Translations under genes and position numbers: made by a program
From: a phage
Sequence record: PZ496581.1
DNA length: 64,000 nt
Strand: one strand, 5' to 3'
In this document: in pieces, positions 559-31,343 of the stretch
How the letters are laid out: each line of letters opens with the position of its first letter
How positions within the stretch are numbered: position 1 is the stretch's first letter
The notes under the pieces: generated by a model
What the model saw: only the letters and a program-made list of their open reading frames with translations
Told to the model about the DNA's origin: nothing
Databases searched by the model: none

Positions 559-598
559 ATTTCTCTCATTTAATTAGTTGGCCGTCCTTGGCATTATA

Positions 599-3310
599 TC
601 AAAAATCAAACATATCGAACAGAGATGCTTTCTTCTCGTAATCGAGTTTAGCTGCTGATGTGAATCCTTCAAGTGGTTTAATAAATGTCTTCTCAAGGAG
701 AACAGTGTAGTCCATCCAATGAAGTACATCGTCTTTAATTAAATCTGTGATTTCAGTACCAGAAGGCCATGCGATACATTTATCACCGAATGGGTTTCCT
801 TCACGTAAAGGCAGAACATATACTTTTTCACCTTCTACAACTTGCGGTGCATCGATATTACCTTTGATAGCCCGGTTATACGTCAGAATTCCACGAATAT
901 GGAACGGGCATTTGGGACCAGGGAATCCACCGACGTCATATTTAGCAATGTTATTCGCAGAAGATACCGACGCGATGCTAATATAATTCAACTGACGGAA
1001 TTCTTTTTCAAACTCTTTAAAATATTCTTGTAATGATTCTTCACCTTCCTGAAGCATACGACGAATACATTCCTTAAGAGCTTTCTGTACTGCTTTAGGA
1101 GTCGAAGATTTCTGTGTTTCGAGACCCATGATTTTAAGCTTAGGTTCAGCGTATCTGGTTCCTTCCATATCCCATACATTCAAGGCATAACGTTTCTTAC
1201 CTGTCCAAAATCCGCCAATACCTTTAGAACCAAGCGGAGGCCCAGCGATAGCTTCTCGGTCCATGAACATTAAGTGTTGTTTATTGTTCATGTATTCACA
1301 CATTTCACGGAAACCTCTATCAATAGCTGGTTCCATACGTTCACGTGCAAACTTATCTAAGAAGTCTACCCAATGGTTGGTATCACGGAATTTAGATTCA
1401 CCAACCTTATCGATAATTTTATCGGCAGATACGTAAATAGAGTCTGTATCACCATAAAGAACGAAAGCTTCACCTTCTGTACCACAAACTTCATTCAGAT
1501 ATTCATTAACTTTACGTTCAATCCACTGTAAAGCCATTTGTCCGAATGTTGTGATTGCAGTAGCATTACGCAAATCATAATAACGGAACCAAACGTTTCC
1601 AAGTGCACCATAAAGTGAGTTGATGAGCAATTTACGGTTAATTTGTGCAGTCATACCTGCAACTTCAGTACGTTGAGCTCTAAACAACATTTCATTAAGA
1701 GATTTAGCAGACAACTTTTTAATCTTTTCTTTAATCTCATCGCTGAAGTCGAAACGATAATCAACATCTAATGGTTCGTCAACAGAAAGATTAGGATTAT
1801 GCAATGCCTCTTTAATTATTTCACCATTACGTTGAGCTGCAAGCATGTAACCTTTATGTTCTTTACGTTGATTAAAGACCTTAGTGATTTCAGTTGGAAC
1901 TACACCATCACGGTCTTTATAATACATCATGCCGTTAGGAGAACAACTGTACACATCTGAAGGACGTTCAGCGATTGCGTTAATATAATCATGCAATGGA
2001 GCTACTTTAAACGTTCCTGCTATTGTTTCCGGGCTAATATTCACTTGGCGAATAATACTTGGATACAGAGATGTAAGGTCGAAACTCATTACATATTTGT
2101 ATCGATTTGGAATAGGTTCCTTAACAAAAGCGCCAGGATAAGGTTGAACCGGGTGAGAACGACCTTGTGGAATCACCTTGTTCTGTTCTTTAAGGCTATT
2201 AAAAATAATAGCATCCCATGTTTTAATTGGGCCAAACACAGATTGAATCTGTATCTTAGCATAATAACCCATGTCCAAACTCAAGTTGATGAACTGACGC
2301 TTAGCATCAATTTGCAATACACGATACACATCGATAATGTTATAAGAAATATATCGTTGGTGATTGCTTTCACGAAGTTTAGAAATAGGGCCGTCATATT
2401 TCAGTTTACCAACGTTCAATTCAAATTCTGAAATGTAATCCAGAGAATACGATGGTTGATTGGTAAAAGAGAATTTTTTGTAAAGGTCAATGTAATCAAG
2501 AACAGAGATACCGAACAATGTAATGATTTCACGAGAACCATACATGTTTTCGATAACTTTAACACGAGTTTTACGATGTGGTGATAAACGTTTCGCAGTA
2601 GATTCGCCAAAAATATTCTTGATTCGGTTATACACATATGGAATATCGAATGACTCAACGTTCCATCCAGTCAAAATGACAGGAGTTTTCTGTTGCCAGA
2701 AGTTGAGATATTCCATCAACAATTCTTTTTCGTTATCGAACGGTATATAAATGATTTTATCGATAATTTCGGATGGAACTTCATCACCACCTTGTTCTTG
2801 AAGCTTAGCCGCAATTTCGATAGACCATTCTTCTACATTACCATACGGAGAATTCAATAGATCAAATACGTAGAACCTGTCGTCAATTGAGTCATAATGG
2901 GTGATAGCATCAATCGGATGTTTTGCTTGTGATGGCTCAGGGAACCCATCCGGAGATGTTACTTCGATGTCGAAGTTAGCCACACGAATTTTTGTATGGT
3001 CGTATTTGATTTCATAGTTATAAGTGTCAGACAAATACGCCAATTTGAAATCGTCCATACCAAGTGCTTCAAGTCCGATATCTTCCATGCGTTTAATCCA
3101 TTGGGAGGCATCACGCATATTAGCGAACAACTTACGAGTACACGGCTTACCGTAGATATCGAAATATTTCGTAGCCTGACTTTCTGGACAATGAGCAAAC
3201 AGTGATGGTTTATATTCTACTTCACGAGTACGTTCACGGCCATTAGAATCGATGTAACGTTCAAAAATTGAATCACCAATCTGTTCAACCGTTAAGTAAA
3301 ATTCTTTCAT
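599..3310 (-). CDS. 43: DNA polymerase, family B (gp43)
   Basis: 903-aa ORF with exo motif FDIEV and polymerase motifs SLYPS and YGDTDS; length and N-terminus as recalled for RB69 gp43. Confidence 0.97.
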   Translation of the reverse strand: MKEFYLTVEQIGDSIFERYIDSNGRERTREVEYKPSLFAHCPESQATKYFDIYGKPCTRKLFANMRDASQWIKRMEDIGLEALGMDDFKLAYLSDTYNYEIKYDHTKIRVANFDIEVTSPDGFPEPSQAKHPIDAITHYDSIDDRFYVFDLLNSPYGNVEEWSIEIAAKLQEQGGDEVPSEIIDKIIYIPFDNEKELLMEYLNFWQQKTPVILTGWNVESFDIPYVYNRIKNIFGESTAKRLSPHRKTRVKVIENMYGSREIITLFGISVLDYIDLYKKFSFTNQPSYSLDYISEFELNVGKLKYDGPISKLRESNHQRYISYNIIDVYRVLQIDAKRQFINLSLDMGYYAKIQIQSVFGPIKTWDAIIFNSLKEQNKVIPQGRSHPVQPYPGAFVKEPIPNRYKYVMSFDLTSLYPSIIRQVNISPETIAGTFKVAPLHDYINAIAERPSDVYSCSPNGMMYYKDRDGVVPTEITKVFNQRKEHKGYMLAAQRNGEIIKEALHNPNLSVDEPLDVDYRFDFSDEIKEKIKKLSAKSLNEMLFRAQRTEVAGMTAQINRKLLINSLYGALGNVWFRYYDLRNATAITTFGQMALQWIERKVNEYLNEVCGTEGEAFVLYGDTDSIYVSADKIIDKVGESKFRDTNHWVDFLDKFARERMEPAIDRGFREMCEYMNNKQHLMFMDREAIAGPPLGSKGIGGFWTGKKRYALNVWDMEGTRYAEPKLKIMGLETQKSSTPKAVQKALKECIRRMLQEGEESLQEYFKEFEKEFRQLNYISIASVSSANNIAKYDVGGFPGPKCPFHIRGILTYNRAIKGNIDAPQVVEGEKVYVLPLREGNPFGDKCIAWPSGTEITDLIKDDVLHWMDYTVLLEKTFIKPLEGFTSAAKLDYEKKASLFDMFDF

Positions 3311-3319
3311 TTAATTTCC

Positions 3320-3340
3320 TTTAGACGAGTTATTGTCTTT
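3320..3340 (-). promoter_or_regulatory. gp43 translational-operator-like hairpin 5' of the gene 43 ribosome-binding site
   Basis: mRNA-sense AGAC-AAUAACUC-GUCU hairpin then AAAGGAAAUUAAAUG; loop matches the T4 operator loop as recalled. Confidence 0.45.
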
Positions 3341-3368
3341 TGTTTGTTGATGAACTTATTATACTCCA

Positions 3369-3388
3369 AATGGGACCGAAGTCCCATT
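3369..3388 (-). other. stable RNA hairpin with UUCG tetraloop immediately 3' of regA
   Basis: AAUGGGAC-UUCG-GUCCCAUU on minus-strand RNA; near-identical copies at 23870-23885 and 37568-37589. Confidence 0.5.
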
Positions 3389-19020: not shown

Positions 19021-19325
19021 TATAATGTTCTCTCAAATTTGTGGAAGCATTTACGGCATTTCAATTTCAAGTTATCAGTGGTCCAGTTAACCAGTTGGAC
19101 TTGGATAGTTCCACATTCTGGGCATGGATGTTTTGCTGCCGATTTGGCAGCATTTTCACGTCGTTCAACCATTTTCATTATTTCGTTCCATGCTGGAGGA
19201 ACGAACTCTTCTTCACTATGAATTTTATCTCGCTGAACAAATTCAATCTTTGAACTATCATCAATAAACTTAACTAAGCCATGATTAGTGTTCATATCAA
19301 TATCCTCTAAAAGACGTAGTTTCAT
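19020..19325 (-). CDS. hypothetical zinc-ribbon protein
   Basis: 101 aa with CPECG...CRKC cysteine pairs. Confidence 0.5.
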   Translation of the reverse strand: MKLRLLEDIDMNTNHGLVKFIDDSSKIEFVQRDKIHSEEEFVPPAWNEIMKMVERRENAAKSAAKHPCPECGTIQVQLVNWTTDNLKLKCRKCFHKFERTL

Positions 19326-20275
19326 TATAAAACCTCAATGGCATTTCGTAAACCATCCGCTTTTGCATTAAGAGCTTTTAATGATTTAGTTTGTTCTGCA
19401 ATCTGGGCTTCGACTTCTTTCAGACGAGATTTGAGATATTCGCGTTCTTCTCTTAAGTTATCAACTTTTTCTACTTTAGGTTCTTTAATAGGCTTAGGTT
19501 TATACGTATTAGGGTTCTTCAGCTTAATTTGAATACGAGAACTGAATAACATTGAACCGTTATCTTCGGTTTCACTATGCATTTCTACCACGTCCATGAT
19601 TCTTAACATCATGCGAAGTTTATAAGACAGCGAACGAATGGTTTTATTGTGCTTCTTAATTTCTTCAGCTTTCATGGTGCCGAGATTACGTGAGTAGTAA
19701 TAAGGAACCTGAATATCAATTGATAATGATGCGGTACCATTACCAGTTGGTTTGAATACTGCAGTAACCCAATCTTTAACATGAACTTTATTTGTACGAT
19801 CATCGCCACCTGTGAATAATTTACAAGAATGTTTAAAAAGCATATTCACTTGGTTATTGAATTCACAAGCAAATTTATCAGCAAATTTAGTTTCAGGAAT
19901 GGTAGTTAACCAATCAGCCAAATGAGTCTTTTTAACATCATTAACAATAGTGAATTCAACCAAATCGGTTTTAGATGTCACAGATTTAATAAAGCTCGGC
20001 TTCATAAAGTTTTTAATGTTATCGCGAGCTACAGTAGAAGATAATAAACGAGAACGTTTGAACCATTGAAGCAACGTCCCTAACGAATGAGAATACGCAT
20101 TTTGAGTATCTTTACAGATATGATTTTCTTGGCCTATGTATGTACCAAAATCGCGAAGAATACCACTTACTACATCTCGGTGTGGAACATCAAATCCTAA
20201 TGAACCAGAAGCACGTTGGGCATGAACGTTAGCGATAAGACCTGCAAAGTATTCAATGTAATGTGAACGTGTCAT
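19325..20275 (-). CDS. hypothetical protein with C-terminal coiled coil
   Basis: 316-aa ORF; heptad-rich C-terminus; preceded by promoter/hairpin cassette. Confidence 0.6.
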   Translation of the reverse strand: MTRSHYIEYFAGLIANVHAQRASGSLGFDVPHRDVVSGILRDFGTYIGQENHICKDTQNAYSHSLGTLLQWFKRSRLLSSTVARDNIKNFMKPSFIKSVTSKTDLVEFTIVNDVKKTHLADWLTTIPETKFADKFACEFNNQVNMLFKHSCKLFTGGDDRTNKVHVKDWVTAVFKPTGNGTASLSIDIQVPYYYSRNLGTMKAEEIKKHNKTIRSLSYKLRMMLRIMDVVEMHSETEDNGSMLFSSRIQIKLKNPNTYKPKPIKEPKVEKVDNLREEREYLKSRLKEVEAQIAEQTKSLKALNAKADGLRNAIEVL

Positions 20276-20298
20276 AATATTTTCCTCTCGTTAAGATA

Positions 20299-20337
20299 AA
20301 TTCATTATACTCCAACCATCCTTGGTTGTAAACTATT
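20299..20337 (-). promoter_or_regulatory. promoter/stem-loop cassette, copy A
   Basis: minus-strand GTTTAC-CAACCA-AGGA-UGGUUG-GAGTATAAT; core 27-mer repeated at 21319-21360. Confidence 0.45.
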
Positions 20338-21297
20338 TTATGATTTTAATGCATTCATTGCGTTAAAAAGTTTAGAATACTGCAACTGGAGATTCGTTAC
20401 AACACTTTGAGCATCACGAAGCTTAGCTTGTGCTTTGTCAAGTTCAACGGATAGTTGGTCTACAGTGGCCTTGATTTGATTGTAATGGTAATCTTCGGCC
20501 GGAAGAAGGTCATTAGAAACATTTAGTTTTACTGCAGACAGTTTGCACACATTTGGCAAACCTTTAAACATTGATTTACCCGAAGTAGAATATGCACCTA
20601 GAACTTCAGCATTGCCAGTTGGGGTTGCAGTAATTGACGCTTCGAACGTTGCATTTTCCTTTTTAAGATTTTGATAGTATTCAGAGTCTTTGTGCCACCA
20701 TGACGCAGGAACCTTTTTACCAATAGATACACGAGCCTGGATAGCGATATGGCCCTTATTCTTGATAGGGTCGATAATATTAAGCTCACGAGAATAAATT
20801 GCTTTAATCTGGTGGATATTATCACCTAAAACTTCCAACGCTTGGTGGAATACACGAGCAACGTTATCATTCTTAGGTTTATACGTAAGAGTGAACTCGT
20901 TCTCACTGATAACCATGATTTCCAACTTATCGTAAGTATATTTCAAATGTTTCATGTTAATTGCTTGAGGACGAATACGAGAAGCAATGGCCATCAGATT
21001 GTTAAGGTTATTCCGGAACTGCTTAGCGAAATATTGTCCTTCACCGCCAATACAAAAATTACGAAGTTTCTGTTTGGCTAATAAACGGCTGAACTCACCA
21101 TTTTTAATGAACTCTTTAACGGGTGTGTTAGTAACGCATTCAAATTGAGTAAACTTACGAGAATTAATCCCATAATATGAACAGATTTCCTCAATCTCTT
21201 CAGGAGTCTTTACAGGCATACGGATAGGATTAGGACCTGGGGTATATGCGTTCGAGGTAAATTCTTTGATAAGTTCTCTACGTGTAATAGAAGCCAT
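20338..21297 (-). CDS. hypothetical protein with C-terminal coiled coil
   Basis: 319-aa ORF; same architecture and same upstream cassette as 19325-20275. Confidence 0.6.
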   Translation of the reverse strand: MASITRRELIKEFTSNAYTPGPNPIRMPVKTPEEIEEICSYYGINSRKFTQFECVTNTPVKEFIKNGEFSRLLAKQKLRNFCIGGEGQYFAKQFRNNLNNLMAIASRIRPQAINMKHLKYTYDKLEIMVISENEFTLTYKPKNDNVARVFHQALEVLGDNIHQIKAIYSRELNIIDPIKNKGHIAIQARVSIGKKVPASWWHKDSEYYQNLKKENATFEASITATPTGNAEVLGAYSTSGKSMFKGLPNVCKLSAVKLNVSNDLLPAEDYHYNQIKATVDQLSVELDKAQAKLRDAQSVVTNLQLQYSKLFNAMNALKS

Positions 21298-21318
21298 TTT
21301 GTGTTCCTCATGTTGAAA

Positions 21319-21360
21319 AATTTATTATACTCCAACCATCCTTGGTTGTACATCATTCCT
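21319..21360 (-). promoter_or_regulatory. promoter/stem-loop cassette, copy B
   Basis: ATTATACTCCAACCATCCTTGGTTGTA identical to copy A. Confidence 0.45.
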
Positions 21361-21423: not shown

Positions 21424-21717
21424 CTAATCGTGAGATTTCATCGTCAGAACGTTAAGTTTATTCAGCGCGCTGAAGATTCCATCAGCCATTGATTTTCCAT
21501 AACCTTTACACGCTTTAATAAGTGCTCGCGGCAGATTAGTATAGATTTCAGACGGCATATGAAAATCAAATTTACTAGTCAGTAATTGATGAACTTGGAT
21601 AGCAATTTGCTCATAATTAAGTGCTCTGCGATCGTTATGGTCTTTAAACCACACTTTAATCTGTGAAGCACATAAACCGTTAATTTCATGTTTTACCGCA
21701 TCAGATGTAATGCTCAT
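21424..21717 (-). CDS. hypothetical protein
   Basis: 97-aa ORF. Confidence 0.5.
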   Translation of the reverse strand: MSITSDAVKHEINGLCASQIKVWFKDHNDRRALNYEQIAIQVHQLLTSKFDFHMPSEIYTNLPRALIKACKGYGKSMADGIFSALNKLNVLTMKSHD

Positions 21718-21779
21718 AACTATTTCCTCAGATTGAATTGGAACTCAAAACCATTATAACCCGTCCTTGGGTAAAGCGT

Positions 21780-30884: not shown

Positions 30885-31343
30885 CTAGATTTTAATCACT
30901 GCTTTAGAAGCTTTTCCCGGTAGTCGTTTACTGTTAATAATAGCCATTCTACATTGAAGAGTCTTCATTTTGAATGCCGGATTTTCGCGACAAACTGTAA
31001 GTCCTAACCAAAGATTTCCATCAGTTATTTCTAAACGGCCTGGGCGATATTCGACACCTTCGACAAAATCTTCATCAACATCTGGACGTGCCGGCATTGA
31101 TAAAAATTCTGCAACTTCTTTAACATGATTTTTTACTTTACGAAATAATTCAAAAACGTAATTCTCATCTATTTCTCTCTGGATGGCACGATCTAAGAGA
31201 TGTTGAGAATACTTGATATGAAAGCCTGGTAGTCCAAGAGACTTTGCAGCATCTTTTATACTGGCATTTATTTTGCGGAACTCCGTTTCAAAGATTCGAC
31301 GGAGTTTATTACGGCGGATAAAAACGTCTGAATTGATAGTCAT
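30885..31343 (-). CDS. regB: endoribonuclease RegB
   Basis: 152 aa, MTINSDVFIRRNKLRR...EYRPGRLEITDGNLWLG...INSKRLPGKASKAVIKI matches T4 RegB. Confidence 0.93.
   Translation of the reverse strand: MTINSDVFIRRNKLRRIFETEFRKINASIKDAAKSLGLPGFHIKYSQHLLDRAIQREIDENYVFELFRKVKNHVKEVAEFLSMPARPDVDEDFVEGVEYRPGRLEITDGNLWLGLTVCRENPAFKMKTLQCRMAIINSKRLPGKASKAVIKI

Follow-up and report, generated by a model that had tools for sequence, protein, structure and literature searches.

Genes A and B are two neighbouring open reading frames in a 64,000-nucleotide stretch of phage DNA (sequence record PZ496581.1; the whole stretch is called the window below). We conclude, with a probability of about 75%, that they are two unrelated, non-essential early accessory genes, each held as an insulated and exchangeable unit in a PeSL-type promoter/hairpin cassette of the nrdC hyperplastic region. 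PeSLs were described in phages RB49 and phi1 as repeated intergenic modules of hyperplastic regions, combining a sigma-70-like early promoter with a stem-loop (Arbiol et al. 2010, PMC2839356). The observation is genuine, but known biology accounts for most of it; what is new is the detail of a conserved hairpin loop.

The original prediction had described two reading frames of almost equal length, both ending in long heptad-repeat helices and both preceded by the same 27-nucleotide sequence, and had suggested that they were acquired or duplicated as cassettes. The reading frames were found as described, on the minus strand, at 19325-20275 (gene A, 316 amino acids) and 20338-21297 (gene B, 319 amino acids).

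Each gene has its own promoter/hairpin module

Exactly two copies of the 27-mer TACAACCAAGGATGGTTGGAGTATAAT are present in the 64 kb, both on the minus strand (20304-20330 and 21324-21350); from shuffled sequences, 0.00 copies would be expected. An exact copy thus precedes each gene as predicted, 28 nucleotides from the ATG of gene A and 26 nucleotides from that of gene B. It consists of the 3′ part of a -35 hexamer, a 17-nucleotide spacer and a perfect -10 hexamer. The module of gene A (20304-20332, minus strand) has TTTACA at 20327-20332 and TATAAT at 20304-20309, and on the coding strand reads ...AAAATAG TTTACA ACCAAGGATGGTTGGAG TATAAT GAATTTATCTTAACGAGAGGAAAATATT ATG. The module of gene B (21324-21352, minus strand) has TGTACA at 21347-21352 and TATAAT at 21324-21329, and reads ...GGAATGA TGTACA ACCAAGGATGGTTGGAG TATAAT AAATTTTTCAACATGAGGAACACAAA ATG. 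Shine-Dalgarno sequences and start codons could be read from the sequence at 20273-20289 for gene A (GAGAGG) and 21295-21311 for gene B (GAGG), both on the minus strand. When the surrounding 8 kb were scanned with the sigma-70 consensus, the A module was the best site (11/12) and the B module the joint second best (10/12). The site equivalent to the A module is annotated 'promoter' in the genome of the related phage NBG1.

The inverted repeat CAACCA-AGGA-UGGUUG lies wholly within the spacer, at 20313-20328 in the A module and 21333-21348 in the B module. It forms a 6-bp stem with a 4-nucleotide loop, and folding of the RNA predicts this hairpin, as had been proposed, as the structure of lowest energy (-6.9 kcal/mol, z about -2.1). 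Three of its six pairs are GC, it is followed by the tail GAGUAUAAU, and it was not flagged in a terminator scan, unlike an intrinsic terminator. Both modules are intergenic, running from the stop codon of the upstream gene to the Shine-Dalgarno sequence and ATG of the downstream gene, in a hyperplastic region of non-essential genes. In the sigma-70-like hexamers, the 17-nucleotide spacing and the stem-loop inside the spacer they agree with published PeSLs, and annotation can describe the repeat as an early promoter cassette of the PeSL type.

About 11 strong early-promoter-like sites were found on the early strand of the window, and the 27-mer was present at two of them only. Judged by this distribution and by that in NBG1 described below, the 27-mer is not the generic early promoter, which was the outcome that would have undermined its significance. 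The original prediction had also regarded genes A and B as co-regulated. Each gene does stand in a self-contained promoter/hairpin cassette; because both carry the same early-promoter module, it is plausible that they are co-regulated as far as promoter class goes.

The hairpin is conserved by covariation

Copies of the module were sought in three parts of NBG1: 1-50 kb, 119-169 kb and the stretch that corresponds to the window. TTTACAACCAAGGATGGTTGGAGTATAAT was found there in three exact copies, which precede nrdC.3, nrdC.5 and the gene adjacent to dexA. Three diverged versions precede the nrdC.6 homologue (ACCC-AAGGAC-GGGT), a reading frame near 30.x (ATCC-AAGGAC-GGAT) and the RNA ligase gene (TACCACA-AGGAT-TGTGGTA). 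The remaining early promoters of NBG1 have only TTTACA-N17-(G/A)AGTATAAT in common. The window itself holds a diverged module at 21751-21772 (minus strand), where ACCC-AAGGAC-GGGT abuts TATAAT with no -35 hexamer; it is orthologous to the T4 module upstream of nrdC.7. In T4 the hairpins read AGCCA-AGGA-TGGCT ahead of nrdC.3, TGCCACA-AGGA-TGTGGTA ahead of nrdC.4 and TTATACCA-AGGA-TGGTATAA ahead of nrdC.7, and other T-even contigs carry the stems CATCCA/TGGATG and CTTCCA/TGGAGG. The repeated copies in NBG1, and the insertions and deletions that distinguish related phages, are likewise properties of PeSLs.

Among 14 distinct modules, the six stem pairs were 89% paired, compared with 64% in shuffles (0/500 as high), and stem changes on both sides numbered 22 against 6.9 expected (0/500), the unbiased test being that of the outer three pairs only. 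Controls in which the register was slid gave 17-42% pairing. Columns 4-17 and 5-16 were paired in 14/14 modules, with five and four pair types respectively. The outer pairs covary, whereas CAAGGA(U/C)G, made up of the loop and the two pairs that close it, is invariant in all T-even modules. This pattern indicates that the hairpin is under selection.

We also scanned IMG/VR with the pattern CCAAGGATGG-N0-8-TATAAT. Among the matches listed, most were chance matches in coding DNA; the others comprised further stem variants of T-even phages and a handful of unrelated promoter hairpins. In a 363-kb jumbo-phage contig (L028), three promoters, at about 87, 5079 and 5660, are arranged as TTGACA-stem-(A/G)GGA-stem′-TATAAT; their stems covary and are unrelated. 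The AGGA version was present in two further unrelated contigs (contigs named among the matches listed: L059, L121 and L077). The architecture of a promoter with an RGGA hairpin is therefore not restricted to T-even phages.

These comparisons bear on the idea that the identity of the 27-mers reflects promoter constraint or recent gene conversion alone, and that the inverted repeat has no function. Three identical copies in one genome would fit concerted evolution or recombination between modules, and the hairpin is thermodynamically modest, with a z-score near -2. However, compensatory changes separate paralogous and orthologous modules (CAACCA/TGGTTG, CATCCA/TGGATG, CTTCCA/TGGAGG, AGCCA/TGGCT, TGCCACA/TGTGGTA and TTATACCA/TGGTATAA), G-U wobbles occur in the sense orientation only, and the unrelated jumbo-phage contig carries such an arrangement three times with different stems. 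We therefore consider a functionless repeat very unlikely.

Genes A and B belong to different families

Gene A is the orthologue of T4 NrdC.3, with which it shares 56% identity across all 316 amino acids (E 2e-119). It matches phrog_1435 (E 2e-105), and PF26897 is listed for all of its homologues. The family was found in 654 phage records, all of them T4-like coliphage relatives. NrdC.3 and NrdC.4 are remote paralogues, both matching phrog_1435 over their full length and aligning to each other with an hhalign probability of 90.6% (E 1e-6). Gene A would most likely encode another host-interaction or counter-defence factor. A further promoter-like sequence, TTTACG-17-TATAAT (10/12), lies inside the 3′ end of gene A at 19324-19352 on the minus strand. 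Its TATAAT overlaps the stop codon of gene A and the ATG of the nrdC.2 homologue, and it may be a chance match or an internal promoter.

Gene B matches the Pfam family DUF7235 (PF23882) over its full length (residues 15-318, E 6e-121, 404 bits with a cut-off of 30). It is a distant homologue of T4 NrdC.5 (25% identity, E 1e-11), which is itself a DUF7235 protein (E 5e-126), and a close relative of the RB69 gene named 'nrdC.5'. The subtype to which gene B belongs was present in 142 phage records. In T4, nrdC.5 is an early gene that counteracts the sirtuin defence Dsr1, encoded by dsr1 of ECOR17 (Srikant et al. 2022, PMC9391042); a T4 deletion mutant plates again on dsr1 cells when nrdC.5 is expressed from elsewhere, in trans (PMC9391042). 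It is the only gene of the nrdC.3-nrdC.6 array with a published role, and literature searches for later mechanistic work on nrdC.5 and Dsr1 found none. By its family assignment, gene B most likely encodes a counter-defence protein of NrdC.5 type. The description of both functions as unknown is out of date for the family of gene B, since T4 nrdC.5 counteracts Dsr1. Two 'hypothetical proteins' can thus be named in annotation, one as an NrdC.3 orthologue and the other as a candidate counter-defence protein of the DUF7235/NrdC.5 type.

Both proteins end in a heptad-repeat helix of about 45 residues, as predicted. By heptad analysis and AlphaFold2 it spans about residues 270-316 of A (19328-19468, minus strand) and about 270-319 of B (20341-20490, minus strand). 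The best 42-residue heptad window was the extreme C-terminus in both cases, with hydrophobic occupancy of the a and d positions of 0.83 in A and 1.00 in B, and about 0.2 at the other positions. Heptad shuffles did as well in 2/200 trials for A and 1/200 for B. The terminal helices of the AlphaFold2 models (residues 275-315 of A, with a predicted local distance difference test score (pLDDT) of 75-91, and 266-318 of B) were their sole moderately confident parts. An architecture of about 300-340 residues with a terminal heptad helix of about 45 is common to the array proteins, and A and B are likely to be oligomers joined by the C-terminal coiled coil.

The terminal helix was the only region in which the two proteins could be aligned. 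BLASTP of A against B gave a best E value of 3.3, profile-profile comparison aligned the coiled coil alone with a probability of about 2%, and the two proteins are assigned to separate families in both Pfam and PHROG. Searched against 1.84 billion representative proteins, an A-family profile gave five matches, none of them B-like: four were NrdC.3 types or fragments, and the fifth was a 336-residue protein (E 6e-6) with 43% identity to T4 NrdC.4. When all four family profiles were compared with hhalign, NrdC.3-NrdC.4 was the only link. AlphaFold2 models made from shallow alignments had mean pLDDT values of 49.6 (A) and 39.4 (B), too poor for fold comparison; in Foldseek searches of BFVD, each of these poor models retrieved its own protein family only, with a template-modelling score of about 0.28. 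Searches of PDB sequences found no match, and a PADLOC scan gave nothing meaningful.

By these comparisons A and B are unrelated at the sequence level, without detectable paralogy, and no evidence supports the duplication of one into the other that had been put forward. By their sequences the promoter modules, unlike the genes, are repeated copies of one element. A deeper relationship could be imagined, in which A, B, NrdC.4 and NrdC.6 all go back to tandem duplication, long ago, of a single gene together with its promoter and have diverged beyond recognition in sequence. The T4 genes nrdC.3-nrdC.6 are consecutive, their products are 275-340 residues long, and each ends in a C-terminal heptad helix or continues into one out of frame. 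NrdC.3 and NrdC.4 are true paralogues, the upstream modules of the array genes are clearly related to one another, and phrog_26858 weakly matches both NrdC.4 (residues 64-316) and NrdC.5/B (coiled coil only). Set against this are the absence of similarity between A and B beyond the coiled coil, the restriction of the large profile search to NrdC.3 and NrdC.4 types, and the quality of the structural models, which ruled out a comparison of folds. Common descent of the four genes therefore appears unlikely.

The array gains and loses cassettes

The window derives from a Mosigvirus, that is an RB69-like T-even phage, and has 97% DNA identity to genomes of that group; for the region of the two genes, identity to genomes such as NBG1, mobillu and LH01 is 95-98%. 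Genes A and B lie inside the nrdC hyperplastic region, between nrdC (thioredoxin) and the homologues of nrdC.8-nrdC.11. The T4 array comprises four genes in a row, nrdC.6, nrdC.5, nrdC.4 and nrdC.3; here there are three, nrdC.4 being absent. The order nrdC.5-module-nrdC.4-module-nrdC.3 of T4-type genomes is thus replaced in the window phage by nrdC.5-module-nrdC.3. T4 nrdC.5 directly follows nrdC.6 with no module upstream. After nrdC.8 and the module behind it, T4 continues with nrdC.7 and the window phage with nrdC.6; in the latter the nrdC.7 homologue adjoins nrdC, unlike its placement in T4. The differences in nrdC.4, in the nrdC.5 promoter and in nrdC.7 fit the picture, drawn from PeSLs, of an array prone to insertion and deletion. 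Gain and loss between T4 and the window phage were cassette-sized, which bears out the earlier suggestion that cassettes are the units of acquisition.

The third gene of the array is a truncated NrdC.6 homologue at 21424-21717 (minus strand), a 97-residue fragment that matches positions 1-88 of 303 in phrog_2257. The intact homologue in relatives has 331 residues and 29% identity to T4 NrdC.6 (E 4e-20). Alignment with NBG1 revealed an out-of-frame deletion of about 630 bp at a 10-nucleotide microhomology, formed by CTG(A/T)CGATGA repeats, with its junction at 21429-21447. The junction was found in 0/154 related phage records. This copy is a pseudogene.

Other rearrangements of the array were seen in public data. 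In a 299-residue reading frame (P0033), the middle portion of a T4-type NrdC.5 runs into the C-terminal half of an NrdC.3; the fusion point is a short NKVN/NNVN similarity, and the protein is a natural deletion chimera spanning nrdC.4. In T4 (locus L002, 10000-10070, minus strand) the nrdC.6 reading frame stops early, at 275 residues compared with 295-331 in homologues, and the conserved C-terminal coiled-coil segment SKAKSEREKLIKIVDLLKS runs on out of frame to the start of nrdC.5. In a T4-type contig (locus L006, 5910-6942) nrdC.4 is split into two reading frames, and both the hairpin and the -10 hexamer of the nrdC.3 module are mutated (TAGCT, TACAAA), which suggests decay of the cassette. 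The array is in flux: there is a fresh deletion here, an NrdC.5::NrdC.3 chimera elsewhere, and an NrdC.4 that T4-type genomes have and the window phage and its close relatives lack.

A model for the cassettes

In RB49 and phi1, promoter and terminator/attenuator activities of PeSLs have been measured, and gene cassettes are excised or inserted by recombination of the modules (PMC2839356). By analogy, host sigma-70 RNA polymerase would start a fresh transcript at each module upon infection, and read-through transcripts from the upstream gene would carry the hairpin, which might attenuate, process or mark them. With its own transcript start and a hairpin on any read-through RNA, each gene would hence form an insulated expression unit. 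Through the short homologies that they provide, the repeated modules would allow the gain, loss or exchange of cassettes. If so, the region illustrates how T-even phages hold accessory genes as insulated, exchangeable units.

The sequences themselves show what the two genes are, how promoter and hairpin are built, where the copies lie, that the stem covaries and that A and B lack homology. In this model we infer the promoter activity, the role of the hairpin and the functions of both proteins, and several considerations weigh against it. Promoter and attenuator activity are assumed from the PeSLs tested in RB49 and phi1. The hairpin is weak (-6.9 kcal/mol), AT-rich and without a U-tract, and was not flagged by the terminator scan, so a simple role as an intrinsic terminator is doubtful. 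The modules used for covariation were partly chosen by hairpin scanning, or with a pattern that fixes the inner three pairs. An origin of the A module as a crossover of the T4 modules flanking nrdC.4 was tested and found no support (left side 31/46 versus 26/45, right side 36/50 versus 36/50). Anti-Dsr1 activity may not be conserved in gene B because of its low identity to T4 NrdC.5.

What the hairpin may bind

The published interpretation of the PeSL stem-loop is attenuation of transcription from upstream (PMC2839356). An invariant loop and closing pairs combined with varying outer pairs point, in addition, to sequence-specific recognition. Any role of the hairpin would be limited to read-through RNA, since transcripts begun at the module's own promoter lack it. 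Tentatively, and with rather low confidence, CAAGGA(U/C)G may be an RNA signal that recruits or titrates CsrA, a global regulator of the host, on read-through early transcripts and perhaps directs cleavage by the phage endoribonuclease RegB. We infer both links from motif matches.

A CsrA binding site in the stem-loop, acting by bridging to the GGA of the Shine-Dalgarno sequence or by titration of CsrA by abundant early RNA, is an equally tentative proposal. In the form known from RsmE, the CsrA consensus is CANGGANG; hairpins presenting it numbered 10 in the window compared with 2.3 +/- 1.7 in shuffles, and four of these were intergenic on the early strand. A second GGA occurs in the Shine-Dalgarno sequence, 36 nucleotides downstream of that in the hairpin, and this spacing is within the span that a CsrA dimer can bridge. 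In the window hairpin CAAGGAUG occupies the loop and closing pairs, with GGA in the loop of a short hairpin. CsrB repeats read CAGGA(U/A/C)G, and in vitro selection of ligands (SELEX) gave the consensus RUACARGGAUGU; in the selected ligands the GGA sits in a hexaloop that AC/GU closes on stems about 4 bp long (PMC7652899). The invariant CAAGGA(U/C)G, retained while the outer pairs covary, fits both, and the T4 nrdC.4 module (ACAAGGAUGU) matches the ACARGGAUGU core at 10/10 positions. Bridging by CsrA has been described at glgC, with no distance range (PMC7652899), and CsrB is among the few host RNAs that are stable during T4 infection (PMC9697503). However, the agreement is one of motif only, and GGA-rich loops likewise resemble Shine-Dalgarno sequences and RegB sites. 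Most modules have CCA where ACA is 100% conserved in SELEX, and the hairpin is missing from transcripts of the module's own promoter. In the library searched, no paper linked CsrA to T4 RNA, and none had described this loop in T4 early promoters before.

Processing by RegB, which would cut read-through early transcripts between cassettes, is in our view quite unlikely. RegB cuts GGAG/U in intergenic regions of early genes; alone it recognises GGA, and it cleaves well at an unpaired GGA followed by a constrained fourth nucleotide (PMC3014915). In the predicted fold the GGA is in the loop and the next U is the first paired base, a GGAG directly follows the hairpin (UGGUUGGAGUAUAAU), and a regB endoribonuclease gene is present in the window (30885-31343, minus strand; PF10715, E 3e-69). 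On the other hand, some modules have GGAC instead of GGAG/U, the T4 modules ahead of nrdC.4 and nrdC.7 lack the GGAG, and the sequence 3′ of the GGAG (GGAGUAUAAUGAA) only partly matches the strong-site consensus GGAGRAYARAA. Secondary structure is moreover generally protective against RegB (PMC3014915).

If the loop were to bind CsrA or direct RegB, this would be the first specific molecular partner for PeSL stem-loops. A CsrA link would tie the early-gene cassettes of T-even phages to the host Csr network, and the spacer hairpins with RGGA loops in unrelated phage contigs would then represent a wider phage strategy.

The site upstream of gene 43

The original prediction had placed the same sequence, together with an upstream hairpin, ahead of gene 43. 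The 11-mer TGGAGTATAAT is indeed present at 3358-3368 (minus strand) and a hairpin does precede it, the whole site spanning 3352-3387. The hairpin is a different one, a GC-rich stem with a UUCG loop (AUGGGAC-UUCG-GUCCCAU, 3370-3387, -11.7 kcal/mol), and what is shared is generic -10 context only. The 11-mer alone was not significantly enriched (five sites with at most one mismatch, 1.97 expected), and the match is explained by the TTTACA-N17-(G/A)AGTATAAT that early promoters share.

Two other hairpins lie near this gene. Downstream of its -10 hexamer, AGAC-AAUAACUC-GUCU (3323-3338, minus strand) has a loop containing UAAC and is similar to the translational operator of gp43 reported in T4 and RB69. 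The other, GC-CAAGGACG-GC (about 575-600, minus strand), lies directly downstream of the -10-like GATATAAT, in the interval that separates gene 43 from its neighbour. It is the fourth of the intergenic hairpins counted above, and one more promoter-associated instance of the loop motif, placed differently with respect to the -10.

Comparison with known systems

Like the CsrA-binding hairpins represented by the CsrB repeats and the SELEX consensus, the window hairpin is short, carries GGA in its loop and has a CA...UG closing context. It differs in its position in a phage promoter spacer, and hence on read-through RNA only, and we do not claim it as a member of that group.

The NrdC.3/NrdC.4 family (PF26897, phrog_1435) is confined to Tequatrovirus and Mosigvirus. 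Gene A is followed by a nrdC.2 homologue as in T4, but the window phage lacks an NrdC.4 paralogue. Gene B is only 25% identical to T4 NrdC.5 and has a promoter module of its own, but it belongs to the same Pfam family over its full length, takes the same position in the nrdC array and ends in the same C-terminal heptad helix, and 60 alignment columns are invariant across both subtypes.

PeSLs have been extended from RB49 and phi1 to T4/PST and nt-1/KVP40 (Comeau et al. 2014, PMC4122927). The stems of RB49 and phi1 consist of G-tracts and C-tracts, and those of PST/T4 have the form AGNA...TCNT and stand just upstream of the promoter in the published figure (PMC4122927), whereas the stem described here is AT-rich and carries a conserved AAGGA(U/C) loop. 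The stem-loop of PeSLs is mostly found between the -35 and -10 hexamers or overlapping the -10 (PMC2839356), and in lying between the two hexamers the modules of genes A and B resemble the commonest PeSL subclass.

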